Positions 6,180 to 58,071 are shown, numbered from the stretch's first letter. The stretch is 64,000 nucleotides of DNA from Thermodesulfovibrionales bacterium (GCA_049302185.1 JBAQLV010000010.1:38742-102741), one strand, 5' to 3'. Numbers and translations are program-made. Notes: generated by a model not told the origin, from the sequence alone.

Positions 6180-6851
6180 GTGATTGTTCTGAAGGATATA
6201 AGGAAGTCGTATGTGCTGCCAAAGGTGACTGTGGATGTCTTAAGGGGCATAGACATGGAAGTCGCTGAAAAGGATTTTGTGGCAATAATGGGGCCTTCAG
6301 GCTCAGGAAAATCAACGCTCCTTCACATCATCGGCTGCCTTGACAGGCCGACATCAGGGCAATATCTGCTCCTTGATGTTGATGTCAGCCGGAAAACAGA
6401 CAATGAGCTTGCAGAGATAAGAAACAGAAAAATCGGCTTCGTATTCCAGAGTTTTAATCTTCTTCCTAAACTTATTGCATGGAAAAATGTCGAGCTGCCT
6501 CTGCTTTACGGCGGGGTGGAGCCTGATACAAGGAAAAAAAAAGCGTTTGAGATGCTTGAGAAGTTCGGCCTTTCTCACAGGGCAGAGCATTACCCGAGCG
6601 AACTTTCAGGAGGGGAGCAGCAGAGGGTTGCAATTGCAAGGGCGCTCATAAACGACCCTGCGATAATACTTGCGGATGAGCCTACAGGAAACCTTGACAG
6701 CCGTTCGGGAAAAGAAATCATAGAGGCATTTAAAGGTTTAAATAAGGAAGGCGTAACGATTGTGGTTGTTACCCATGAGAAAGATATTGCTGACGAGGCA
6801 GGGAAGATAATAACAATAAGAGACGGGGTTTGCCAGAGTGGATGTTATTGA
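6180..6851 (+). CDS. ABC transporter ATP-binding protein (MacB/LolD-like)
   Basis: Walker A GPSGSGKST, signature LSGGEQQR, Walker B ILADEPT. GTG start. Confidence 0.9.
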   Translation: MIVLKDIRKSYVLPKVTVDVLRGIDMEVAEKDFVAIMGPSGSGKSTLLHIIGCLDRPTSGQYLLLDVDVSRKTDNELAEIRNRKIGFVFQSFNLLPKLIAWKNVELPLLYGGVEPDTRKKKAFEMLEKFGLSHRAEHYPSELSGGEQQRVAIARALINDPAIILADEPTGNLDSRSGKEIIEAFKGLNKEGVTIVVVTHEKDIADEAGKIITIRDGVCQSGCY

Positions 6852-21864: not shown

Positions 21865-24276
21865 TTATTCTTTAGTCTGGGATGACTGTTTTATTCTTTC
21901 CCTCACTATGTATGCCTGCCCCAGCGATATGCCAGCATCATTTGCAGGAACCTTTTCATTAGTATAAACATTCATTCCTATTGATTTTAGCCTGTCTATA
22001 GTATTTTTTAGAAGATACATGTTCTGAAAAACTCCGCCACTTAAAACTACATCATGCAGCTTATGAACCATGCCGAGCCGCTGGACGACTCCGGCAATAA
22101 TTGTGACTATGGTGTTGTGAAACTTAGTGGCGATAATATCTTTTCCAATGCCTTTCGCCATATCCTGTATCAGCCTGAACAGAGTCAGGCAAAAGTCTAT
22201 TTCAATCCTGTCTTTCAATCCGATGTCAGCAGGGTAGTCTTCCTCTATGTTATCTATTGTATAAGATTCAAGCGCCATTGCTGCCTCGCCTTCAAAGGTG
22301 TTTGTGTCGCATATCCCGAGTATTGCCGAGACCGCATCAAAGAGCCTTCCTGCGCTTGATGAAAGGGGTGAGAAATCTCTGTTGTCAATGATTCTGAGAA
22401 TGCTGTTTATCTTATCACTGCCGTATTTTTCAATGAAGCCTATGGACTCCAGATAGTGCATGACCTCATCTCCCGTGATATATCTTATGTAGCTGACCGC
22501 AACTCTCCACGGCTCTCTGATTGCCGTCTCTCCTCCAGGAAGGGGGATGTATTTAAAGTGTCCTGCCCTCTTAAAGTCATCTATATCGGCAATCAGGAAT
22601 TCACTTCCCCATAGATTCCCGTCAGTTCCGTAGCCTGTGCCGTCAAATGCCACGCCTATGACTTTTCTCTTTATTCCGTTTTCTGCCATGACAGATGCAA
22701 TATGGGCATAATGATGCTGAATGCCATAAAAAGATAGTGACGAGTGACGAGTTTTTTGCTCCTGACTGCTAACTGCTGACTGCTGGGCCAGCGCCCATTT
22801 TGTTGAAAGATAATTGGGATGCAGGTCATATCCAATTGCAACAGGGTTCACCCTGTAAACTTTTTTTAGATTGCTGAGGCTTTCTTCAAAGAATTTTACA
22901 GTCTCGTAATTTTCCATATCTCCTATGTGATGGCTTGGAATAGCATAGCTTCCTTTTGTGAGGGTAAATGTGTTTTTTATATCAGCTCCGCAGCCGAGCA
23001 CTTCGGGACCATCATTGTCCAGAGATATGGGTTCAGGCGCATAGCCCCTTGAACGGCGGATAAAAATAGGTTTTGTCCTGTGAGCTAAAAAATGATTTCT
23101 TATAACAGAATCATCTACACGCATGAAGATGTCCCTGTTATGGATAAGGAGGGCATCAACCATATCGGAGAATTTTGATACTGCCTCGTCATTGCTGACA
23201 ACTATCGGCTCTTCCGAGATGTTGCCGCTGGTCATTACAAGGGATTTGAAATGGGGCATACCATTTACCCCCCCTTCGCCCCCCCTTACCAAGGGGGGGA
23301 TGGGGGGGTGGGGATAATAGAATAACAGATAATGCAGAGGCGTGTATGGGAGCATGAAGCCGATGTGCAGATTATTAGGGCTGATCGAATCAGGCAAGAG
23401 CGCTGAATTGTCTTGCGCAGTTTTTTTCCTGAGGAGCACAATCGGTCTCTTATTGGAGGTCAGGAGTTCTTGCTCTTTCTCCGATACCTCGCAGTATTTT
23501 TTAATTGTTTCTATGTCAGGAGCCATAAGCGCAAAAGGCTTGTTGTTCTTTCTTTTCCTTTCTCTTAATCTTTCAACCGCATCTTTGTTTGCGGCATCGC
23601 ATGCGATATGAAAACCGCCAAGCCCCTTTATTGCAATGATACAGCCGTCTCGTAGAAGTCTTATTGTTTCTTTTATCGGATTTTCTGCCTTATTAACTTT
23701 TAACTTTTCACTTTTAATTTTTAATTCAACATGCGGTCCGCATACCGCACATGCATTAGGCTGGGCATGGAATCTCCTGTCGGAAGTGTTGTTGTATTCG
23801 CTTTCGCATTCATTGCACATTTTAAAAACAGACATGGTGGTGTTGTGTCTATCATAAGGCACAGCATTTGTGATGGTGTATCGCGGCCCGCAGTTGATAC
23901 AGTTTATGAAAGGGTAGAGATAACGCCTGTTGTCTTTGTCAAGCATCTCTTTAAGGCAGTCATCGCATATTGAGACGTCAGAAGATATAAGCGTAAAACT
24001 TCCGCTGTCTCTGCTTTTTACTATCTCAAAATCTTTGTGCCCGTAAAGAGGCATAGGCGAAATATCAATCTTGTTTATCTCTGATAATGGAGGCGCTTCT
24101 TTTGGAAGCCTGCCTATAAATGACGTGATGTCTTCGCCTTCTATGTCAATTGCCACGCCGTCAGAGGTATTGGTCACTGTGCCTTTCAGGTTAAGGGATT
24201 TGGCAAGGTTATAGACAAAGGGCCTGAAGCCGACTCCCTGCACAACGCCTTTGATATTGATGAGGACACGGTTCAT
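21865..24276 (-). CDS. hypF: Carbamoyltransferase HypF
   Basis: 803 aa with an acylphosphatase-like N-domain, four CxxC zinc-finger motifs and YrdC-like and Kae1-like domains. It carries two repeat-derived in-frame insertions. Confidence 0.95.
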   Translation of the reverse strand: MNRVLINIKGVVQGVGFRPFVYNLAKSLNLKGTVTNTSDGVAIDIEGEDITSFIGRLPKEAPPLSEINKIDISPMPLYGHKDFEIVKSRDSGSFTLISSDVSICDDCLKEMLDKDNRRYLYPFINCINCGPRYTITNAVPYDRHNTTMSVFKMCNECESEYNNTSDRRFHAQPNACAVCGPHVELKIKSEKLKVNKAENPIKETIRLLRDGCIIAIKGLGGFHIACDAANKDAVERLRERKRKNNKPFALMAPDIETIKKYCEVSEKEQELLTSNKRPIVLLRKKTAQDNSALLPDSISPNNLHIGFMLPYTPLHYLLFYYPHPPIPPLVRGGEGGVNGMPHFKSLVMTSGNISEEPIVVSNDEAVSKFSDMVDALLIHNRDIFMRVDDSVIRNHFLAHRTKPIFIRRSRGYAPEPISLDNDGPEVLGCGADIKNTFTLTKGSYAIPSHHIGDMENYETVKFFEESLSNLKKVYRVNPVAIGYDLHPNYLSTKWALAQQSAVSSQEQKTRHSSLSFYGIQHHYAHIASVMAENGIKRKVIGVAFDGTGYGTDGNLWGSEFLIADIDDFKRAGHFKYIPLPGGETAIREPWRVAVSYIRYITGDEVMHYLESIGFIEKYGSDKINSILRIIDNRDFSPLSSSAGRLFDAVSAILGICDTNTFEGEAAMALESYTIDNIEEDYPADIGLKDRIEIDFCLTLFRLIQDMAKGIGKDIIATKFHNTIVTIIAGVVQRLGMVHKLHDVVLSGGVFQNMYLLKNTIDRLKSIGMNVYTNEKVPANDAGISLGQAYIVRERIKQSSQTKE
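22736..22786. repeat. Heptamer arrays inside hypF (AGTGACG x2; CTRACTG x3)
   Basis: Read directly. They encode the AVSSQEQKTRHSSLS stretch, which looks like an insertion relative to HypF as I know it. Confidence 0.8.
23268..23313. repeat. GC-rich palindromic mini-element, in frame in hypF
   Basis: cccccccttcgccccccttaccaagggggggatgggggggtgggg. It is the near-exact reverse complement of 45716-45759 and encodes PHPPIPPLVRGGEGG. Confidence 0.9.
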
Positions 24277-31676: not shown

Positions 31677-31984
31677 ATATCCTTATTGCCTCTCCAAACA
31701 ATTTAGTTAATGTCGTGGCTGTTTATTGATCTTTATCAGTTTTTTCGTTATTATTCTCGGTGCCGTTATTTTCTTTAATGCCGTGACCTGCCGTAATTTC
31801 ATTTATATTACATGAATCCCTTGATATATCTGAGAACATCATATGGCACTGGAAAAGCAACGCCGTCTTGAGTTGCCTGCTTAACTATATCGTGCCAGCT
31901 TCCGCCAAAAGTCTTCGCAACGCGCTCTGTCACCTTCACACTATTCGCAATCTCAACTACAACTAGGGGAATAATTAGGGGAAT

Positions 31985-32743
31985 AATTAGGGACACATCC
32001 CATAATTTTCTTTTACTTTTTTTTCTTCCTCGGTCTTCCGGGAGATTTCAGTATAAATCTCCTTTCAAGCTTCTTTTCCATTTTCTTTATGAACTCTTCG
32101 CTGCCCAACGGTCTCCCCGTTCTCGTATGATACCTTATACCGTTTATCTCTTTCTCCGCAATACCTGATTTAATAAGTTTTCTGTAGTCCTTCCTCTGCC
32201 TTGCTTCAAACAATTCCTCTTCCAATATCTCATTCACTATGCCATTTATGTGAGCATTTGCACTTGAATATGTAAAGTCCTCTGCCTTTTTCACTATCCG
32301 TGCTCTTACAGGGTTCTGTTCAATGTATCTTGCCACAGCCCACAAATACTTATCCTTATCTACTATGCAGGAATGATATCTGCTTTCCCATAATCTGCCT
32401 GTCCGTTGGTATTTTCTATTTATATGCTGCGTGTAACACAGCGTTACTCCCTGCATCATCTTATATAAGGATTCTTCACTTTTTGGCCGTGTCAATAGGT
32501 GGATATGGTTGCTCATAAGACAATAGGCAAGGATTGGTGAATCCCATTTGTCTGAATATTTCTTAAGTAATTCCAAATATTTCTTTCTGTCTTCACCTTT
32601 AAAAAAGACCTTTTCTCTGTTATTGCCTCTCTGGACTACATGATGGAAAAAACCCGTTGCAACTGCTCTCGCTATTCTTGGCATGAGAAGATTTTAGATT
32701 ATAGCTGCTCTTTTGTCAAATAATAGGGGATGTGTCCCTAATT
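31985..32743 (-). mobile_element. RAYT/IS200-like unit: Y1 transposase gene bracketed by perfect 17-bp inverted repeats
   Basis: AATTAGGGACACATCCC at 31985-32001 and its exact reverse complement at 32727-32743. Subterminal 12-bp direct repeats lie on both outer flanks. Confidence 0.75.
32013..32684 (-). CDS. REP-associated tyrosine transposase (Y1 / IS200-like family)
   Basis: 223 aa with HHVVQRGNNRE, CLMSNHIHLL (HUH motif) and a conserved Tyr region YIEQNPVRA. Confidence 0.8.
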   Translation of the reverse strand: MPRIARAVATGFFHHVVQRGNNREKVFFKGEDRKKYLELLKKYSDKWDSPILAYCLMSNHIHLLTRPKSEESLYKMMQGVTLCYTQHINRKYQRTGRLWESRYHSCIVDKDKYLWAVARYIEQNPVRARIVKKAEDFTYSSANAHINGIVNEILEEELFEARQRKDYRKLIKSGIAEKEINGIRYHTRTGRPLGSEEFIKKMEKKLERRFILKSPGRPRKKKK

Positions 32744-32972
32744 TTCCAATTTTCCACCTCCCTAATTTTCCATAATTTTCCATTGTCCTAAAATTGTCCC
32801 TAAAATTGTCCCTAAAGCCGGATACAAGCCCAATGACATATGCATTTAGTCCAGCAGTCTCTGATGCAACGGGCTTCGATATATCTGTGATTTGTTTTTT
32901 ACTGTTTTCATCTGCATAGGAAAATATTGTGGTAGAAGACAATAAGAATATAACTGCTATAAAAAGTTTCAT
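32694..32972 (-). CDS. Hypothetical small secreted protein whose 3' half runs into the RAYT flanking repeats
   Basis: Signal-like MKLFIAVIFLLSSTTIFSYA. The C-terminal FRDNFRDNFRTMENYGKLGRWKIGKLG is a translation of the 12-bp repeats. Possibly disrupted. Confidence 0.3.
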   Translation of the reverse strand: MKLFIAVIFLLSSTTIFSYADENSKKQITDISKPVASETAGLNAYVIGLVSGFRDNFRDNFRTMENYGKLGRWKIGKLGTHPLLFDKRAAII

Positions 32973-41739: not shown

Positions 41740-43343
41740 AAGTTGTTACAGCGGAAGAGATGAGAGAGATTGACAGGATGACCATAAGGGATTATGAAAT
41801 AGCCGGTAGTGTGCTCATGGAGAGGGCAGGGCTTGCCGTTGCAGGAAAAATAAGGGAACTTTTTGAGCGGCGGAGAAAGGTTATAGTTCTTTCGGGTGGA
41901 GGCAATAATGGCGGAGACGGCATTGTTGTTGTAAGAAATCTTCATGAATGGGGCTGGAATGTAAAAATCATTCTTCTTTCAAAGGAAAACAAGCTAAGCC
42001 CGGACTGTCTGTTGCAATATAAGATAGCGAAAAAATCAGGCGTGCCGGTTGAGTTTCGGGATTATATCACAGAAAAAGACCTTCATAGCGCTTTGGTTGT
42101 AGATGCAATTTTCGGCACCGGTTTAAGCAAAAATATCACAGGAAAGACGGCCGAGATTATATCGTTTATCAATGCCTCGGATGCTCCTGTAATTTCTGTT
42201 GACATTCCCTCAGGCATTTCATCAGATACAGGGCAGATTATGGGAGAGGCGGTCAGGGCGGATTATACCATAGCGTTCGGTATTCCCAAGAGAGGTCATC
42301 TGCTTTACCCGGGCGCTGATTATACCGGAAGGCTTTTTATTGAAGATATCGGCTTTCCTGAAGAACTGCTTCACTCGGAAAAGCTTAAAGCAGAGCTTCT
42401 TGAAAAAAGAGACATATTTTTATTGATTCCCGAAAGGCAGAGGTATTCGCATAAAGGCGATTATGGCCATGTGCTTGTTATTGCAGGCTCAAGAGGGAAA
42501 ACAGGCGCTGCATTCATGTGTGCAAAGGCATGTCTAAGGTCAGGCGCAGGGCTTGTGACAATAGGAGTTCCGGAATCACTGCTGGATGTTTTTCAGTCAA
42601 GGGTTACAGAAGAGATGACCCTGCCTTTGCCTGACAAAGGAGACGGGACGCTTTCATCAAAGGCATTGGAAAAGATTCTGGAATTTCTTTCTGAAAAGGC
42701 TGATGTGCTTGCAATTGGTCCGGGAATTTCCGTTACCGATGATACTAAGAAGCTTGTCAGAGAACTTTTACTGAATTCAACAGCGTCGGCTGTTATTGAT
42801 GCTGATGCTATAAATTCGCTTCAGGGCAATAAGCAGATACTCAAAAAAGCGAGGTCGCCGCTGATTCTTACGCCTCATCCAGGAGAGATGGCGAGACTCT
42901 TACAGAAGTCACCCCCCCCACCCATCCCTCCCCCTCGAGGGGGGAGGGTGAGGGAGGGGGTGAAAGCTCTAACTTCTGAACTCCAAACCAAAATAGAGCA
43001 GGACAGGATTAATACTGCCATGTTTTTTGCAAAAGAGACAGGGACATATCTTGTTCTTAAAGGCGTGCCGACAGTTATTGCTGAACCGGAAGGCAGAGTG
43101 TTCATCAATCCGACAGGCAATTCCGGTATGGCGAGCGCCGGAACAGGGGATGTCCTGACAGGAATGGTTTCAGGGTTTTTAGGGCAGGGGTTAAACCCGC
43201 TTGAGGCGTCAATTCTTGGAGTTTATATGCATGGACTTGCCGGAGACATAGCTGCGAAAAGCAAGGGAGAACATTCGCTGATTGCATCCGATATTACAGA
43301 TGCGATTCCGGAGGCGTTTCATCTATTGAGGATTATTTCATAA
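41736..43343 (+). CDS. nnr: Bifunctional NAD(P)H-hydrate repair enzyme (epimerase/dehydratase)
   Basis: 535 aa with a YjeF_N domain (GGGNNGGDG) and a carbohydrate-kinase-like C domain (GTGDVLTG). It carries an in-frame GC-palindrome insertion. Confidence 0.92.
   Translation: MKVVTAEEMREIDRMTIRDYEIAGSVLMERAGLAVAGKIRELFERRRKVIVLSGGGNNGGDGIVVVRNLHEWGWNVKIILLSKENKLSPDCLLQYKIAKKSGVPVEFRDYITEKDLHSALVVDAIFGTGLSKNITGKTAEIISFINASDAPVISVDIPSGISSDTGQIMGEAVRADYTIAFGIPKRGHLLYPGADYTGRLFIEDIGFPEELLHSEKLKAELLEKRDIFLLIPERQRYSHKGDYGHVLVIAGSRGKTGAAFMCAKACLRSGAGLVTIGVPESLLDVFQSRVTEEMTLPLPDKGDGTLSSKALEKILEFLSEKADVLAIGPGISVTDDTKKLVRELLLNSTASAVIDADAINSLQGNKQILKKARSPLILTPHPGEMARLLQKSPPPPIPPPRGGRVREGVKALTSELQTKIEQDRINTAMFFAKETGTYLVLKGVPTVIAEPEGRVFINPTGNSGMASAGTGDVLTGMVSGFLGQGLNPLEASILGVYMHGLAGDIAAKSKGEHSLIASDITDAIPEAFHLLRIIS
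42910..42962. repeat. GC-rich palindromic mini-element, in frame in nnr
   Basis: cacccccccacccatccctccccctcgaggggggagggtgagggagggggtg, centred on CTCGAG. It encodes SPPPPIPPPRGGRVREG. Confidence 0.9.
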
Positions 43344-45600: not shown

Positions 45601-46323
45601 ATGACAAATATTGCAGAAGACATAAAGACAGTGCTTGAGTTTTATCAGGCGATGGGGATTGAGAGAATACCCTTAAACATAGCGCTGAAGAGCAGAAGCG
45701 CAGAAGTGCAGAAGCCACCCCCCCATCCCCCCCTTGGTAAGGGGGGGCGAAGGGGGGGTGATTATTCGGAAAAGGTTATTGCTTTAAAAAAATTGCGCGA
45801 TGAGATTGGTGATTGTCAGAGGTGCAAACTCTCAAAGGGGAGAAAGAACATTGTATTCGGGGAAGGCAGCATAGATGCGGAAATAATGTTCATTGGCGAA
45901 GGGCCCGGCGAAGACGAGGACATTCAGGGGCGGCCTTTTGTGGGCAAGGCAGGACAGCTGCTTACAAAACTGATAGAGAAGATGGGATTTAAGAGGGAGG
46001 ATGTCTATATCGGCAATATCGTGAAGTGCCGGCCTCCCGGTAACAGGGACCCTGAGGAAGACGAGATTAACGCCTGTTCTCCGTTCATAAAAAAACAGGC
46101 GGCGATAATCTCTCCGAAGGTTATAGTTTCGCTTGGCCGCATATCTACGCAGACGCTCATCGGCATGAAGATTCCGATAGGCAAGCTGAGGGGCAAATTC
46201 TATCAGTTTGAAGATATTCCGCTGATGCCGACATTTCATCCGTCTTATCTCCTGAGAAACCCCAAAGACAAATGGCTTGTATGGGAAGATGCGCAAAAGG
46301 TTCTTGAAAGGCTGGGAAAGTAG
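45601..46323 (+). CDS. Uracil-DNA glycosylase, family 4
   Basis: 240 aa with CQRC..., GEGPGEDED and HPSYLLRN. It carries an in-frame GC palindrome in the N-terminal extension. Confidence 0.9.
   Translation: MTNIAEDIKTVLEFYQAMGIERIPLNIALKSRSAEVQKPPPHPPLGKGGRRGGDYSEKVIALKKLRDEIGDCQRCKLSKGRKNIVFGEGSIDAEIMFIGEGPGEDEDIQGRPFVGKAGQLLTKLIEKMGFKREDVYIGNIVKCRPPGNRDPEEDEINACSPFIKKQAAIISPKVIVSLGRISTQTLIGMKIPIGKLRGKFYQFEDIPLMPTFHPSYLLRNPKDKWLVWEDAQKVLERLGK
45716..45759. repeat. GC-rich palindromic mini-element, in frame in the UDG gene
   Basis: cacccccccatcccccccttggtaagggggggcgaagggggggtg. It encodes PPPHPPLGKGGRRGG. Confidence 0.9.
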
Positions 46324-46346: not shown

Positions 46347-46419
46347 CATTCTTGTCATTCCTGCGCAAGCAGGAATCCAGCAGTTTGAAAACTGGATTCC
46401 CGTTTTCACGAGAATGACA
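46347..46419. repeat. Family A hairpin units (GTCATTCCTGCGCAAGCAGGAATC; CCAGCAGTTTGAAAACTGGATTC)
   Basis: Intergenic between UDG and ubiX. It has the same ACATTCTTGTCATTC start as 43445. Confidence 0.8.
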
Positions 46420-49999: not shown

Positions 50000-50004
50000 G
50001 GATT

Positions 50005-50033
50005 GTTCACAGTTCACGGTTCACAGTTCACGG
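50005..50033. repeat. Heptamer array GTTCACR x4
   Basis: gttcaca gttcacg gttcaca gttcacg, between the antitoxin stop and the four-helix-bundle start. Confidence 0.9.
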
Positions 50034-50071
50034 ATTGGGGACAGGGTTTTTTGCTGTCAACAGGAGGTAGC

Positions 50072-50265
50072 ATGGGTTTTAATTTTGAAAAACTGGATGT
50101 TTACAAAGAAGCACTATATTTTGCAAATGAGATCTATCAGATCACTAAACGGTACCCAAAAGATGAGATATTTGGGATAACGAATCAAATAAGAAGGTCG
50201 TCTACGTCTATAGCTCAAAATATTGCAGAGGGCAGTGGTCGAACAAAGAAAGAGTTTCCTCCTGA
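50072..50265 (+). pseudogene. Four-helix-bundle protein (23S rRNA intervening-sequence protein / Avd-like family), 3'-truncated
   Basis: MGFNFEKLDVYKEALYFANEIYQITKRYPKDEIFGITNQIRRSSTSIAQNIAEGSGR is a typical family N-terminus. It breaks off after about 65 residues and reads straight into kinase sequence. Confidence 0.7.
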
Positions 50266-51520
50266 AAGAAGAAATGAGGCATGTGTGAAATGCCACGCTG
50301 CCGTGCGCGGCAACCTTAAGGATGTAGATATCTTTGTGAAATCACTTGAAAAGGATCATGAGAAGGACATAAAAGATTTTGATGCCTTCAGATTTTATGT
50401 GCTTGGATTTTTCTTTATTGGAGCGGTTTTTATTGTGTTTTATATAAGGCAGAGCATTGTTATGCCTGTAGGAAGGCTTAAGGATGCAGCAAAAGAGATT
50501 GAAAAAGGAGATTTTTATGTCAGGGTTGATGTAAAAACGAGCGATGATATCGGGACACTCAGTAAGACATTCAATGAAACGGCTAAGTCTCTTGATTTTC
50601 TTTTTAAAGAGGATATGGAACTTCTGCAGGAACTTGAAGAAAAAGTAAAGGAGAGGACGAAGGAGCTTGAGGGTGCAAACCTTGAGCTTCAAACCTTCAA
50701 CAGAGAGATTCAGCTAAGGAGGGTTGAGGCTGAGGAGGCAAGGCTTTAGGCAGAGGCTGCAAGCAGGGCAAAATCAGAATTCCTTGCAAATATGTCGCAT
50801 GAATTAAGGACACCGTTGAATTCAGTCATAGGCTTTTCAGAGGTTTTGACTGAAGGACTGGCAGGCGATATCACAGACAAGCAGAAAGAATATATTCAGG
50901 ATATATGGGGAAGCGGGAAACATCTTTTGCGGCTTATAAATGATATGCTTGACCTCTCAAAGATAGAGGCGGGCATGATGGAGCTTGACCTCAGTGAAGT
51001 TGACATTAAAGAGCTTATTGAGGGAACTATGCTGATGTTTAAGGAGAAGGCAATAAAACACAAAATTAAATTTACTTCTAACATCCCTGATGATATAGGG
51101 TCTGTGACTGCTGATGCTGTGAAGATAAAACGGGTGCTCCTGAATCTCCTCGGCAATGCCTTCAAGTTTACGGATGACGGTGGAGCCGTCTCTGTGCGGG
51201 CGCGGAGGATACATGATACAAGATACATGATGCAGGATAAAGATATCATGTATCGTGAATCAGGCATCGTGCATCCCGACGGAAATTTCGATAAAATTTC
51301 CGTCGCTGACACAGGCATCGGCATTTCCCCTGAAGACCAGAAGAGACTCTTTCAGCCGTTCCAGCAGCTTGAATCTACGCTTACAAAGAAATATGAAGGC
51401 ACAGGACTTGGACTCAGCATCAGCAAAAGGATTGTTGAATTTCACGGCGGCAGGATTTGGGCTGAGAGCGAGGAAGGAAAGGGAAGCAGGTTTATATTTG
51501 TAATACCGGTGAGGAAATGA
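50266..51520 (+). pseudogene. Sensor histidine kinase, 5'-truncated and interrupted by an in-frame TAG
   Basis: CVKCH heme-c motif, one TM, HAMP and a coiled coil. TAG at 50747-50749 is followed in the same frame by [22 protein letters not shown] (H-box) and HATPase_c. Confidence 0.75.
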
Positions 51521-51906
51521 AAATATTGATTGTTGAGGATAATGAAGAGAACCTGAAGCTTTTTAATATCATAGTGGAATCCGGGGGACATACCACTATT
51601 CTTGCAAGGGACGGTGAAGAAACTGTTGAGACCGCTAAAAGGGAAATTCCTGACATCATACTTATGGATATACAGATGCCGAAGATGAACGGTATTGAGG
51701 CGGCAAAAATACTTAAATCAGAGCAGTCCACTGCAAAGATACCGATAATAGCCCTTACGGCATATGCGATGATAGAGGAAAGAGAAAAATTGGGCGGAGA
51801 GTGGTTTGACGGCTACATTTCAAAGCCGGTTGGTGTAAAGGACATTCTGAATGTAATTGATGAAATAACTCAGCAGAAAGGGGAGAGATACGATACCACG
51901 GACTGA
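51517..51906 (+). CDS. Single-domain response regulator (CheY-like receiver)
   Basis: 129 aa with the DNEEN acidic pocket, phospho-acceptor MDIQMP and ALTA...K. Confidence 0.9.
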
Positions 51907-51928
51907 GAAAGGATATTTAAATGAGCCG

Positions 51929-53077
51929 ATAGGCATTATCCTTCTTAATCTCGGCGGGCCTGATTCTATTCAGGCTGTAAAGCCGTTTCTTTACAATTTA
52001 TTTTCAGACAGAAAGATAATTCAACTTGGCCCTCCATTCCTTCAAAAACCGATTGCACGGCTAATCTCAACACTGAGGTCTAAAAAAACAGAAAGTTGTT
52101 ACCGCCTCATAGGAGGCAGGTCTCCGATACTTGATATTACCAATGCACAGGCAAAGGCGCTGGAAGAAACGCTAAATCAGTTCAGCGTTCAGGGTTCAGC
52201 GTCAGAAAACTCCGAACTCCTAACTCCTAACTCCGAGAAATCCCCCCATCCCCCCTTTGTTAAAGGGGGGCGAGGGGGGATTAAAGTTTTCGTAGGAATG
52301 CGTTACTGGCATCCTTTGATAGAAGACGTGATACCTCAGATTTATAATGATGGAATTAGAAAACTTATCGCCATCAGCCTTTATCCCCAGTATTCTCTGG
52401 CAACATCAGGCTCAGCGCTTGTTAAATTTAAAGAAGCTGTAATAAATACTTATCAGCCGGATAAAACAGAGGTTGAAAAAATGAATAGTTCTTTTGAGTA
52501 TCATGGCAAGCCTTCTTTTACTGTTCACTATTCACTATTCACTATTCACTGTATTTTATCATGGTATGACCATCCGCTTTATATTAAGGCATTGGTGGAT
52601 GTGATAAAGAAGGGGATTGAATCTTTTAACTCCAAACTCCAAACTCCAAACTCTGAACTTAATATCCACGTTCTCTTCAGCGCCCACAGCCTTCCTGAAA
52701 AGTTTATTGATGAGGGTGACCCTTATGTGCGTCATATTGAGAGAACGATTGAAGAGATTGTAAAGCGGATACCAATAAAATGGCATCTGAGTTATCAATC
52801 CAAGAGCGGGCCTGTAAAATGGCTTGGGCCTTCAACAGACGAAAAACTTAAAGAACTTGCAGGCAGGAATGTTAAGAATATTCTCATTGTCCCGATAAGT
52901 TTTGTATCTGACCATATTGAGACGCTTTATGAGATTGATATATTATATATGCAGATGGCAAAAGACCTCGGAATTAATCTGAGACGAACAGATTCCCTGA
53001 ACACACATCCGCTTTTTATTGAAGCGCTGAAAGATATAGTAATAAAAAACATGAAGGAGCTTGGTTGGACAGAATAG
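51929..53077 (+). CDS. hemH: Ferrochelatase (start codon unresolved)
   Basis: The conserved N-terminus GIILLNLGGPDS...FLYNLFSD...IGGRSP is in frame from at least 51932. There is no ATG/GTG/TTG in frame after the stop at 51866-51868. The track start at 52298 would delete about 120 conserved residues. SAHSLPE and DHIETLYE motifs are present. Confidence 0.85.
   Translation: MGIILLNLGGPDSIQAVKPFLYNLFSDRKIIQLGPPFLQKPIARLISTLRSKKTESCYRLIGGRSPILDITNAQAKALEETLNQFSVQGSASENSELLTPNSEKSPHPPFVKGGRGGIKVFVGMRYWHPLIEDVIPQIYNDGIRKLIAISLYPQYSLATSGSALVKFKEAVINTYQPDKTEVEKMNSSFEYHGKPSFTVHYSLFTIHCILSWYDHPLYIKALVDVIKKGIESFNSKLQTPNSELNIHVLFSAHSLPEKFIDEGDPYVRHIERTIEEIVKRIPIKWHLSYQSKSGPVKWLGPSTDEKLKELAGRNVKNILIVPISFVSDHIETLYEIDILYMQMAKDLGINLRRTDSLNTHPLFIEALKDIVIKNMKELGWTE
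52178..52282. repeat. Composite in-frame insertion in hemH: GTTCAG-type heptamers, inverted AACTCCN heptamers, then a GC-rich palindrome (52241-52281)
   Basis: Read directly. It encodes SVQGSASENSELLTPNSEKSPHPPFVKGGRGG just upstream of the conserved VGMRYWHP. Confidence 0.9.
52521..52555. repeat. Heptamer array CTGTTCA CTATTCA x3 CTGTATT inside hemH
   Basis: It encodes FTVHYSLFTIHCI. The same CTATTCA unit appears at 38686-38699. Confidence 0.9.
52628..52660. repeat. Heptamer array AACTCCA x3 AACTCTG AACTT inside hemH
   Basis: It encodes NSKLQTPNSEL just before the conserved LFSAHSLPE. Confidence 0.9.
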
Positions 53078-54456
53078 TCATTGTAGGCGGCGGTATTTCA
53101 GGGCTTTCGCTATCCTATGCGCTTCTTGAATCTAACCCATCAGCAGACGTAGTAATATTTGAATCCGAAAAAAGACCCGGCGGAAAGATATGGACAGAAA
53201 AAGTGAACGGTTTTCTCTGCGAAGGCGGAGCTAACGGTTTTCTTGACAACAGGCCAAAGACTTTAGAGCTTGCCTCAAAACTTCTGATTAATCCGCTGAG
53301 AAGCAGTGACGCAGCCAGAAAGAGATATGTTTTTTCTGGCGGGAAATTAAACATTCTGCCTGAATCTCCTTTATCGTTTCTTACTTCCGATCTCTTGAGC
53401 CTTTACGGACGCTTAAGGGTAATGTATGAGTTTTTCGCTCCAAGTCGGTACGACTCGCAACCGAGGGACAGCTCAGATGATGAAACCCTTGCTGATTTTG
53501 CAAGGAGAAGACTCGGCAAAGAAGCATACGAAAAACTCATTGATCCGATGGCATCAGGCATTTATGCGGGGAATCCTGAGTCGCTAAGCCTTAAAAGTTG
53601 TTTTCCAAAGGTATTCAAACTTGAAGAGAAATACGGAAGCCTTATAAAAGGCATGATAAAACTGAAGAGAGAGGCTAAAAAATCAGGAAATCAAAAAATC
53701 GGAGCCGGCCCCGGAGGCACGCTTACATCTTTTCACGACGGCATGGGAATGATGATAGATTCCATGAAAAATTCATTGAAGGAAAGACTCAGAGCCGGGA
53801 GCAAAGTAATCTCTGTTGAAAGGAAGAATAAGGGTTATGCTGTCCATCTCTCTGACGGCATGGTTGTAGAAGCTGAGATTGTTGTCATTGCATCTCCTGC
53901 ATATTCAGCAGCGGAGATTTTAAAAAATCTTGACAGGCATCTCTCATCGGTTCTTTCAGAAATAACGTATCCTTCTGTCTCTGTTGTGTGTTTTGGATAC
54001 AGGAAAGAACGCATTGCTCATAAACTGGATGGATTTGGTTTTCTCATCCCATATAGGGAGCGCAGAAAAATCCTCGGTTCATTATGGGATTCAAGCATTT
54101 TTCCCGGAAGGGCTCCTGACGGATATGCGCTTTTAAGGAGCATGGTGGGAGGCGCAAGGGCATCCGAGATTGCGATGCAAGATGACAGCAGGCTGATAGA
54201 CATTGTGGCAGAGGAATTAGGGCATATTATGGATATAAAAGTTCAGCCTGATTTTGTAAAAATTTACAGACACGAAAAGGCAATTCCGCAGTATAATATA
54301 GGTCATGACAGGAAATTGAAAGCAGTTGACGAGATGTTATTAAAATACAGAAACCTGTATTTAACAGGGAATGCATACAGGGGAATAGGCGTTAATGACT
54401 GCATAGAAAATTCATATAAATTGGCAGGGACAATAATCAGAAAGGAGGAAATATAA
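53065..54456 (+). CDS. hemY: Protoporphyrinogen/coproporphyrinogen oxidase (HemY type, FAD-dependent)
   Basis: 463 aa with IVGGGISGLS dinucleotide-binding N-terminus. It overlaps the hemH end. Confidence 0.88.
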   Translation: MDRIVIVGGGISGLSLSYALLESNPSADVVIFESEKRPGGKIWTEKVNGFLCEGGANGFLDNRPKTLELASKLLINPLRSSDAARKRYVFSGGKLNILPESPLSFLTSDLLSLYGRLRVMYEFFAPSRYDSQPRDSSDDETLADFARRRLGKEAYEKLIDPMASGIYAGNPESLSLKSCFPKVFKLEEKYGSLIKGMIKLKREAKKSGNQKIGAGPGGTLTSFHDGMGMMIDSMKNSLKERLRAGSKVISVERKNKGYAVHLSDGMVVEAEIVVIASPAYSAAEILKNLDRHLSSVLSEITYPSVSVVCFGYRKERIAHKLDGFGFLIPYRERRKILGSLWDSSIFPGRAPDGYALLRSMVGGARASEIAMQDDSRLIDIVAEELGHIMDIKVQPDFVKIYRHEKAIPQYNIGHDRKLKAVDEMLLKYRNLYLTGNAYRGIGVNDCIENSYKLAGTIIRKEEI

Positions 54457-56960: not shown

Positions 56961-58071
56961 TTAGGCGATGGGCAGAGCACCATTTTTTGTTCTCTTGATC
57001 TTCAATCCCACGTCTTTTTTCCGTCGTAGCTAAGAATGTTGAAGATGTAAACTCGCTTTATTCTAAGTTTCCTTTACCTATATTACAGTTTGAACAAAGA
57101 GTTTTAAGATTTTCAAAAGTAGTTTCACCATCTTTTGACCAGGGTATTATATGATCAACATGTAATATTATTTTAGGGTCAGTCGCCGGAGATCTGCCAC
57201 AGTATCGGCACTTAAAATTATCTCTTCTCATTACCTTAAATCTAAGTCTATCATTGACTTCCCTTTTAGTTTGATGTGTATTCATTAGTTTTTGTGATGA
57301 TTTTGGTCTCTTGGCTGATGGTGTTTTATCTGCAAACCCAGAAACTAATTCTTCATTGGGATATTCTATAATTGTTGCTTGAGGTAATATGCCCTCTTTA
57401 ATAATTATAGAATTTTCACCCTCAATTGTTGTTTCTTCTTCTTTATTGACATACTCAATAAATCGCTCAAGTGATTTCCGCCAAGTACCAAAATTATGCA
57501 CATAACCACTTCCTGAATATTTAGAAAACGGTATTCGCATATCAGAAAAATGTGGTTGCCTACCGAGTTTTATCCAAACTTCTTCTAAATTTTTAAAATA
57601 CTCCTCATCCGATATACTTGGATGTTCTCTTCTTTTTAAACCGGTTTTTTCTTTTGCTTTTATCCAAGAACCAAATCTATACTCAAGTGTTGAACTATGA
57701 AATTTCCCATGCCGGTTATATTCATCTCTAGTAATTGAATCATTTTTTAACTTAAAAGAAACCCGTTGTAAGTCTGCAATTAATTCTGCATCTTTTATAA
57801 TATTTTTTGTTCTACTTTTTCCGCTTTTTAAACCTGCTTTCGCCAAAGCGTTAGACCAAGAGCCAAATCTGTTATAAAATATGGTAACTCCAAATTTACC
57901 ATGCTTTTTATATTCCCGTTGGGTTAATGAATCTGTTTTTAACTCGGAAGCGACATGTTTTAAGTCCGCAATTAATTCTTTATCTGCAATATGTCTGTTA
58001 AATTTATCTAACTCAAATTTAATCATATTTACTCAACTCTTTTTTATTTTGGTGCTCTGCCTTTCGCCTAA
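56961..58071 (-). mobile_element. HNH endonuclease cassette bounded by 22-bp imperfect inverted repeats
   Basis: TTAGGCGATGGGCAGAGCACCA (56961-56982) matches the reverse complement of 58050-58071 at 20/22. The interior is AT-rich. Confidence 0.35.
57058..58026 (-). CDS. HNH endonuclease with three N-terminal homing-endonuclease-associated repeats
   Basis: 322 aa with three copies of LIADL..V...L..DS(L/I)T..EY..HGKF......RFGSW..A. The C-terminus reads CRYCG...HVDHIIPWSKDG...NLKTLCSNCN. Confidence 0.85.
   Translation of the reverse strand: MIKFELDKFNRHIADKELIADLKHVASELKTDSLTQREYKKHGKFGVTIFYNRFGSWSNALAKAGLKSGKSRTKNIIKDAELIADLQRVSFKLKNDSITRDEYNRHGKFHSSTLEYRFGSWIKAKEKTGLKRREHPSISDEEYFKNLEEVWIKLGRQPHFSDMRIPFSKYSGSGYVHNFGTWRKSLERFIEYVNKEEETTIEGENSIIIKEGILPQATIIEYPNEELVSGFADKTPSAKRPKSSQKLMNTHQTKREVNDRLRFKVMRRDNFKCRYCGRSPATDPKIILHVDHIIPWSKDGETTFENLKTLCSNCNIGKGNLE

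Follow-up and report, generated by a model that had tools for sequence, protein, structure and literature searches.

In this study, a stretch of 64,000 nucleotides from a Thermodesulfovibrionales bacterium (GCA_049302185.1 JBAQLV010000010.1:38742-102741; the whole stretch is referred to as the window) was analysed, with emphasis on the ferrochelatase gene hemH and the short repeats that it carries in frame. The window has a G+C content of 42%, and protein homology places its host among the uncultured Thermodesulfovibrionales/Nitrospirota bacteria. The hemH frame is followed by hemY, and its interior holds a segment of 105 bp in which two heptamer arrays and a G/C hairpin stand one after another. 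Further arrays and G/C palindromes occur elsewhere in the window, and the positions of the features are collected in Table 1.

Table 1. Features of the window, with positions counted from its first nucleotide (TRF, Tandem Repeats Finder; UDG, uracil-DNA glycosylase)
Feature	Position	Strand	Basis or context
hemH (ferrochelatase) reading frame	51929..53077	+	PF00762 match; true start uncertain
35-codon in-frame segment, product QFSVQGSASENSELLTPNSEKSPHPPFVKGGRGGI	52178..52282	+	loop joining helix 70-91 to strand 121-127 of HemH
Heptamer array GTTCAGS (TRF: GTTCAGC x3.3), peptide FSVQGSA	52180..52202	+	TRF
Heptamer array AACTCCN (TRF: AACTCCG x4.1), peptide NSELLTPNS	52208..52236	+	TRF
G/C hairpin element AAATCCCCCCATCCCCCCTTTGTTAAAGGGGGGCGAGGGGGGATT (KSPHPPFVKGGRGGI), 45 nt, AAATCCCCCC..GGGGGGATT, ends AAAT/ATT	52238..52282	+	
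Second hemH heptamer array ACTRTTC x4.4 (TVHYSLFTIHC)	52520..52550	+	ends an insertion not present in L001
Third hemH heptamer array AACTCCA x3.7	52628..52653	+	TRF and comparison with L001
G/C hairpin in frame, YrdC-like domain of HypF (HPPIPPLVRGGEGG)	23268..23308	-	
RAYT-like Y1 transposase gene, 223 aa	32013-32684	-	PF01797, E 1.8e-19
Second-subtype G/C palindrome in frame, Nnr/YjeF carbohydrate-kinase domain (PPPPIPPPRGGRVREGV)	42913..42960	+	
Octamer array AGCGCAGA x4.4	45681..45715	+	directly 5' of UDG hairpin
G/C hairpin in frame, N-terminal region of UDG gene (PPHPPLGKGGRRGG)	45718..45758	+	PF03167

The hemH product matched the PF00762 profile with an E value of 1.2e-101 and 340 bits (curated cut-off, 27), and human ferrochelatase was the closest solved structure (E 1e-61). 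The AlphaFold model of HemH, with a predicted local distance difference test score (pLDDT) of 78 and a predicted template modelling score of 0.79, was superposed on human ferrochelatase 4kla by Foldseek with a template modelling score of 0.82. The motifs SAHSLP and SDHIETLYE, together with the RY ahead of the first insert-free strand, match human ferrochelatase residue for residue and are invariant in the alignment of related proteins; by profile cut-off, fold and catalytic motifs alike, the window HemH is a member of the ferrochelatase family. The frame is free of stops from 51869 to 53077, including the inserted segment, and no frameshift was detected. The ratio of nonsynonymous to synonymous substitution rates (dN/dS) was 0.15-0.37 in comparison with seven relatives. 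An exact search returned no record of the window's 259-aa hemH product. A pseudogene had been named in advance as an outcome that would overturn the first description of the insertion; instead, the gene looks functional by these sequence measures, being apparently under purifying selection with its catalytic motifs kept, although a canonical start codon is lacking.

That first description (the original prediction) had claimed a 105-bp in-frame insertion between EETLNQ and VGMRYWHP of HemH, consisting of four GTTCAG-type heptamers, four AACTCCN heptamers in the opposite sense and a GC palindrome. The insertion itself was borne out. It comprises exactly 35 stop-free codons between ..EETLN and KVFVGMRYWHP, and it differs by 1 nt from the corresponding segment of the related locus L001. 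At this site, human ferrochelatase has 6 residues where the window HemH has 32, and two sequence anchors that are separated by 15-21 residues in outgroup bacteria are separated by 49 in the window protein. HemH residues 92-118 have pLDDT values below 50, and the insert is predicted to form a disordered loop. To judge by the fold in general, it presumably lies at the N-terminal end of the strand that carries MRYWHP at its C-terminal end, and hence away from the active-site side.

The three parts of the segment fared differently. The GTTCAG-type array is present, with three good units and a degenerate fourth in place of four complete ones, and the AACTCCN array contains four units as described. 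The palindrome proved to be a 45-nt hairpin with arms at 52242-52258 and 52262-52278. Its fold as single-stranded DNA has an energy of -19.5 kcal/mol (z = -4.7) and its RNA fold has z = -3.6; the core was matched 3 times in the window, where 0.01 matches would be expected by chance. The opposite sense of the two arrays could not be upheld. The reverse complement of AACTCCG, rotated to GTTCGGA, agrees with GTTCAGS at only about 5 of 7 positions, and the RNA of the two arrays forms only a weak G-U stem. No significant DNA hairpin was found between the arrays (z = +0.77), and a hairpin formed by the two of them was consequently rejected.

The hemH loop was extracted from 145 related loci (labelled L; related proteins are labelled P), thereby revealing a variable site. 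The loops ranged from 33 to 213 nt, and 137 of the 145 were distinct. All but one were in frame, the exception being that of L004, which is off frame at a T-run on a contig with many broken genes. No stop was found in the 72 distinct loops of at least 66 nt. Since all variants keep the frame and avoid stops, the loop would appear to be translated rather than removed. Its content included the heptamers GTTCACA, AACTCTN, GGAGTCA, GAAGTCA, GGTGTCA, CAGTCAG, ATACCTC, AAATCTC, GAAATTC, TCACTCG and GGGACGA, and two octamers, AGCGCAGA and GATTCACC, the former filling the loop of L086, L097 and P0004. At least six sequence-distinct G/C palindromes were found at slightly shifted positions; the second-subtype palindrome of Nnr fills the loop of L093, L101 and L124, palindromes stand without arrays in L093, L101, L104 and L107, and the copies in L106, L109 and L125 are decayed or half deleted. 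L092, L160 and L162 have an essentially empty loop. The suggestion that this site is a hot spot was thus upheld, and the helix-to-strand loop of hemH is strongly supported as a real hot spot for repeats.

Alignment of the close relatives resolved the order in which the parts were acquired. Only the AACTCTN x4 array is present in L187 and L004, and L185 has the AACTCTN array together with the hairpin. The window and L001 have GTTCAGS added 5' of the AACTCYN array and the hairpin, and L186 has GGAGTCR units as its 5' addition instead of GTTCAGS. L005 and L088 have ..AACTCCGAGAAATC.. in common, followed by an array of the GATTCACC octamer at the position of the window's hairpin. The AACTCYN array occupies the same loop position in L187, L004, L185, L186, L005, L088 and L001. 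The unit GCGTTCA, related to GTTCAGS, is present as one copy in L088 and as four in L005, so that the two differ by 21 nt (3 units). These nested subsets of the three parts indicate that the stack was built in steps and not as the single composite insertion originally proposed. The comparison establishes the AACTCYN array as the oldest layer, beside which the 45-nt G/C hairpin, a member of a dispersed family, was added, and it also establishes the GTTCAGS array as an addition on the 5' side.

All four G/C palindromes of the window lie within genes (HypF, Nnr/YjeF, UDG and hemH), and 14 of the 16 two-block copies in the Nitrospirota loci lie inside open frames of at least 245 aa. The UDG copy is found at the same position in the L089 homologue. 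In gene-sense orientation, the HypF and UDG hairpins are identical at 41 of 41 positions but are read in different frames, which we interpret as a sign that the peptide is not what is conserved. The hemH hairpin is identical at 45 of 45 positions between the window and L185, whose hemH genes are 78.4% identical, and the chance of such identity is 0.784^45, about 2e-5. In L094 and L107, the bulges of the hairpin are fully complementary (ATA/TAT and TGT/ACA, respectively). Identity and complementarity alike suggest that constraint or homogenisation acts on the nucleic acid. The hairpin ends are AAAT...ATT(A/T), with the 5' AAAT conserved, and neither a GTAG nor a CGTC tag was present in any of 24 distinct copies.

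In L089, hemY also contains a hairpin of the hemH subtype, whose site is unoccupied in the window and in seven other loci. The filled and empty sites differ by +45/-9 nt without a target-site duplication in this one comparison. A large insertion in hemH of L089 was considered and rejected, the hairpin peptide having matched this second copy in hemY. The hemY gene thus varies at sites of its own, which lie at about 53463-53483 and 53677-53700 in the window. A 21-nt insert (AGTCGGTACGACTCGCAACCG) is found in the window alone, and the KKSGNQK site is filled in L001 by 84 nt containing AAACTCC heptamers and in L089 by a G/C hairpin (6654-6691).

Beyond the related loci, a scan of IMG/VR recovered the architecture AAATCCCCCC..CCCCCCTTTnnTAAAGGGGGG in 20 stretches with a G+C content of 46-65%, many of them in long open frames. 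A virus-classified contig of 23.6 kb, IMGVR_UViG_3300035670_001258 (L166, L170 and L182), carries at least 10 copies of a AAATCCCCC..AAAGGGGG hairpin family, some of which form tandem pairs about 40 nt apart. Rfam gave no family match to the hairpin, and a sub-threshold hit to Pab91 was taken as chance. A search with a concatenated hairpin-peptide query of 59 aa returned nothing among 39 word candidates and is no measure of the spread among protein families. Five copies of the AT...CGA/CAA type have a single orientation relative to the gene, but both orientations occur in L114 and among the IMG/VR copies, so that an orientation rule was discarded.

Heptamers dominate the tandem arrays. A scan of the window for period 7 gave 7 arrays, compared with 0-1 for periods 5, 6, 8 and 9. 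Across the loci, 156 arrays had period 7, 51 had period 8, 15 had period 9 and 9 had period 6, with the heptamer arrays concentrated in close relatives. In total, 86 different heptamer units were counted across the loci. The dominance of one period with so many units argues for local generation rather than for one mobile sequence. In the window, in-frame arrays are present in HypF (three), a Methyltransf_28 protein, a UbiX-like flavoprotein, the HATPase domain of a histidine kinase, UDG (the octamer) and hemH (four), and about two-thirds of the arrays lie inside Pfam-supported genes.

The two further arrays of hemH were examined in the same manner. The ACTRTTC array reads ACTGTTC in all units of L004 and ACTATTC in three adjacent units of the window and L002; the same base change in three adjacent units points to homogenisation within the array. 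The AACTCCA array exceeds the empty site of L001 by exactly 21 nt (3 units) and adjoins a native AACTCTGAACTTAAT, which looks like its local seed. The ACTRTTC array terminates a second insertion (window 52421-52553, HemH residues ~166-212), which makes HemH about 24 residues longer here than human ferrochelatase and is common to proteins just 60-70% identical to the window HemH overall. This insertion is predicted to be structured, with two helices and a beta-hairpin and pLDDT values mostly of about 76-88, and may represent an older, domesticated insert.

The hemH gene is also a mosaic. Over 52109-52348 it shares 98-100% of its nucleotides with L001, and over 52409-52708 it shares 100% with L002; the background identity is mostly ~83-98%. 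In the protein alignment, P0002 has the first insert and lacks the second, and P0001 has the reverse. These patterns show an exchange of hemH loop alleles between related populations through homologous recombination.

Taken together, the 105-bp segment is probably a layered pile of three independent, non-adaptive repeats in an insertion-tolerant surface loop of ferrochelatase, namely, the link from a helix to the strand whose end carries MRYWHP. Under this explanation, heptamer arrays would arise and change length by replication slippage, and within genes only frame-keeping changes (3 units, 21 nt) and stop-free units would survive. The hairpin would spread in a copy-and-paste manner, either by transposition or by templated repair or conversion from other copies, and would be kept uniform at the DNA level and not for its peptide. 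The 30-odd inserted residues would be translated as a disordered loop while the enzyme stays functional, and recombination would then shuffle the loop alleles.

Several points weigh against this explanation. Slippage and copy-and-paste movement are read from sequence patterns, and translation of the insert is deduced only from the conservation of the reading frame. The motifs AACT, GAAC, TGAA and GTGA are enriched 3-4-fold in the 86 heptamer units relative to random 7-mers of the same sequences, which pure random slippage does not predict. Short arrays beside a hairpin recur at UDG and around the RAYT-like gene, and this recurring arrangement hints at a link that the layered pile does not need, although the co-location can be explained if both kinds of repeat survive only at a few insertion-tolerant sites. 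No in-frame ATG, GTG or TTG lies upstream of 52298 (Met127) in hemH, and the one ATG close by, at 51921, lies in another frame and reads MSR followed by a stop (window 51866-51940); therefore, expression would need an ATT or ATA start or translational coupling. The histidine kinase gene 5' of hemH (50003-51520) is broken by an in-frame TAG (50747-50749) between HAMP and HisKA, which indicates some gene decay nearby. The same start-less 5' end is shared by L086 and L088, which come from other metagenomes, that of L086 being the Hainich groundwater set, and the feature is thus real and apparently stable. In L088, AAGGAG stands 9 nt 5' of an ATT codon, and ATT or ATA is the likely start on this sequence evidence.

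The foremost rival attributes hairpin and arrays to one machinery, in which a RAYT-like transposase of the Y1/HUH type would move the hairpin, and nicking or replication stalling would seed the adjacent 7-8-nt arrays; we consider it unlikely. The RAYT-like protein of the window scored 74 bits against NCBIfam REP_Tyr_transpos, below the cut-off of 80. Its gene is flanked by inverted TAGGGACACATCCC hairpins (31964-32002 and 32726-32816) that are bordered by short tandem arrays, TAGGGGAATAAT and ATTGTCCCTAAA, and a 55%-identical homologue in L155 (7150-8080) has the same flanking hairpins. The presence of such a gene and such bordered hairpins in the window and in L155 favours a common machinery, as do the arrays directly adjoining hairpins at hemH and UDG, the conserved 5' AAAT, the motif bias common to the heptamer units and the hemY pair without target duplication, as expected for Y1 enzymes. 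However, the TAGGGACACATCCC hairpins differ in sequence from the G/C palindrome, and no other copies of them were found within the window. Hairpins also occur without arrays (HypF, Nnr, hemY of L089, and L093, L101, L104 and L107), most arrays lack a hairpin, the heptamer units are of 86 kinds, and the scarcity of permissive sites confounds the co-location. The original prediction had suggested mechanistically linked repeat families as an alternative to a hot spot; the stacking of the families at one site stands, and such a link may exist, although palindromes and arrays each also occur alone.

A broader variant, which we regard as doubtful to a like degree, takes the AAATCCCCCC..GGGGGGATT hairpin for a mobile element that has no name so far and crosses phyla, moved in single-stranded form by a Y1/RAYT-like enzyme, habitually landing and surviving in coding genes and nucleating 7-8-nt arrays. 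The cross-phylum part refers to the hairpin seen in Nitrospirota and in the virus-classified IMG/VR contigs with their G+C content of 46-65%. If true, these processes together would supply essential enzymes with new loop sequence throughout the lineage.

An adaptive insert, giving ferrochelatase a new interaction or localisation, or acting as an mRNA hairpin that regulates translation or stability of the hemH-hemY message, is quite improbable. The conservation of the hairpin nucleotides across 22% gene divergence and the z-score of its RNA fold would suit such a role, and the predicted structure and conservation of the second hemH insertion suggest that some inserts may be domesticated. However, the loop content is almost unconstrained in close relatives (empty, arrays only or different hairpins), the insert is predicted to be disordered, the same hairpin is found in unrelated enzymes and in two reading frames, and decayed or half-deleted copies persist in three loci. 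A decaying hemH pseudogene or an assembly artefact in the segment, to which the missing start codon with its out-of-frame ATG, the broken histidine kinase and the loss of an upstream response-regulator/HD gene might point, is highly improbable, considering that independent assemblies agree on the insert (L001) and on the start-less 5' end (L086 and L088), that dN/dS is low without internal stop or frameshift, and that relatives with ordinary hemH start codons have equally loaded loops.

The layered pile in hemH was compared with known repeat systems. According to the account of Ogata et al. 2000 cited in PMC3733652, Rickettsia palindromic elements (RPEs) are dispersed palindromes that lie in frame in housekeeping genes and are translated as additional peptide segments where function allows it. 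The window hairpin is likewise in frame in hemH, HypF, Nnr and UDG, and in hemY of L089. RPEs are 100-150 bp long and confined to Rickettsia, whereas the window hairpin has 45 nt and belongs to a free-living Nitrospirota host, is stacked with heptamer arrays and occupies a loop that has been hit repeatedly; its sequence, which matched no Rfam family, would also differ from that of RPEs, the distinction being drawn from description and not from RPE sequences. Repetitive extragenic palindromes (REPs) are G/C-rich imperfect palindromes of 20-40 bp, some of which lie inside open reading frames and encode 20-30 residues (Di Nocera et al. 2013, PMC3733652). The window hairpin resembles them in being imperfect, G/C-rich, dispersed and roughly of REP size (38-45 nt). 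REPs are recognised by many copies, and four copies of the G/C hairpin were counted in the 64-kb window, the sole part of the source genome covered. Unlike REPs, the hairpin is tagged by AAAT and not by GTAG/CGTC, all four window copies are intragenic singletons, and, unlike in the REP/RAYT system, the RAYT-like gene is flanked by TAGGGACACATCCC hairpins and not by the G/C palindrome. [quoted passage not shown] In its working, the hemH case resembles RPEs and intragenic REPs but falls outside REPs, RPE families and MITEs.

For the arrays, the closest parallels are the TAACTGA repeats of Beggiatoaceae and cyanobacteria and the cyanobacterial short tandemly repeated repetitive (STRR) heptamers, which are mainly intergenic (MacGregor 2015, PMC4679880). 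An excess of heptamers among the long simple repeats of prokaryotes is attributed to Mrazek et al. 2007 in the papers that cite it (PMC4679880, PMC4692102). Like STRR and TAACTGA repeats, the arrays described here are tandem 7-nt units in about 3-5 copies, with lineage-specific abundance and many different units, and stop-containing units are excluded from coding sequence; they differ in being mostly genic, in their unit sequences and in their Nitrospirota host. The small dispersed repeats of Nostoc are reportedly mobile, shorter than 50 nt, found alongside tandem heptamers and capable of inserting into genes; the window repeats would differ from them in sequence and phylum. No description of heptamer repeats in Nitrospirae or Thermodesulfovibrio was found in the literature, the coverage of which was incomplete. 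In-frame palindromes, intragenic REPs and heptamer arrays are already known from other lineages.

The layered pile would imply that a free-living bacterium can keep, translate and reshuffle small repeats of selfish or slippage origin within one of its essential enzymes, and that repeats within essential genes are not confined to reduced intracellular genomes such as that of Rickettsia. The presence and absence alleles at one hemH loop constitute a natural experiment on the tolerance of a loop to insertion. These alleles include 21-nt expansions and recombination tracts, which are datable relative to each other, and they could serve as strain markers for groundwater Nitrospirota populations. 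Such repeats also inflate or fragment gene calls, thereby producing a split hemH, false N-terminal extensions (MVHSSQFTVHG) and PPxPPFxKGGxGG peptides, and annotation pipelines ought to recognise them.

Several minor observations were made in the surroundings of hemH. In the window, the broken histidine kinase lacks the PilJ sensor that L001 and L004 possess and has in its place part of a 23S-rRNA-intervening-sequence protein, and a GTTCACA x3.9 array precedes this fragment upstream of hemH. In L001 (3163-4242) and L004 (4566-5645), the response regulator and hemH are separated by a response-regulator/HD-domain gene that is absent from the window (51906-51929). An in-frame GTTCACA x4 array after the hemH start codon (MVHSSQFTVHG..) is present in L001 and L004 and missing from the window. 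The interval from UDG to the UbiX-like gene contains, at 46353-46419, another kind of inverted repeat of 28 nt (TGTCATTCCTGCGCAAGCAGGAATCCAG / ..GAGAATGACA), which resembles one that is frequent in genomes from sediment and groundwater. The genes ilvD and ilvB, which are adjacent in L004, are separated in the window by an HNH endonuclease gene (57058-58026, minus strand) that carries homing-endonuclease-associated repeats.

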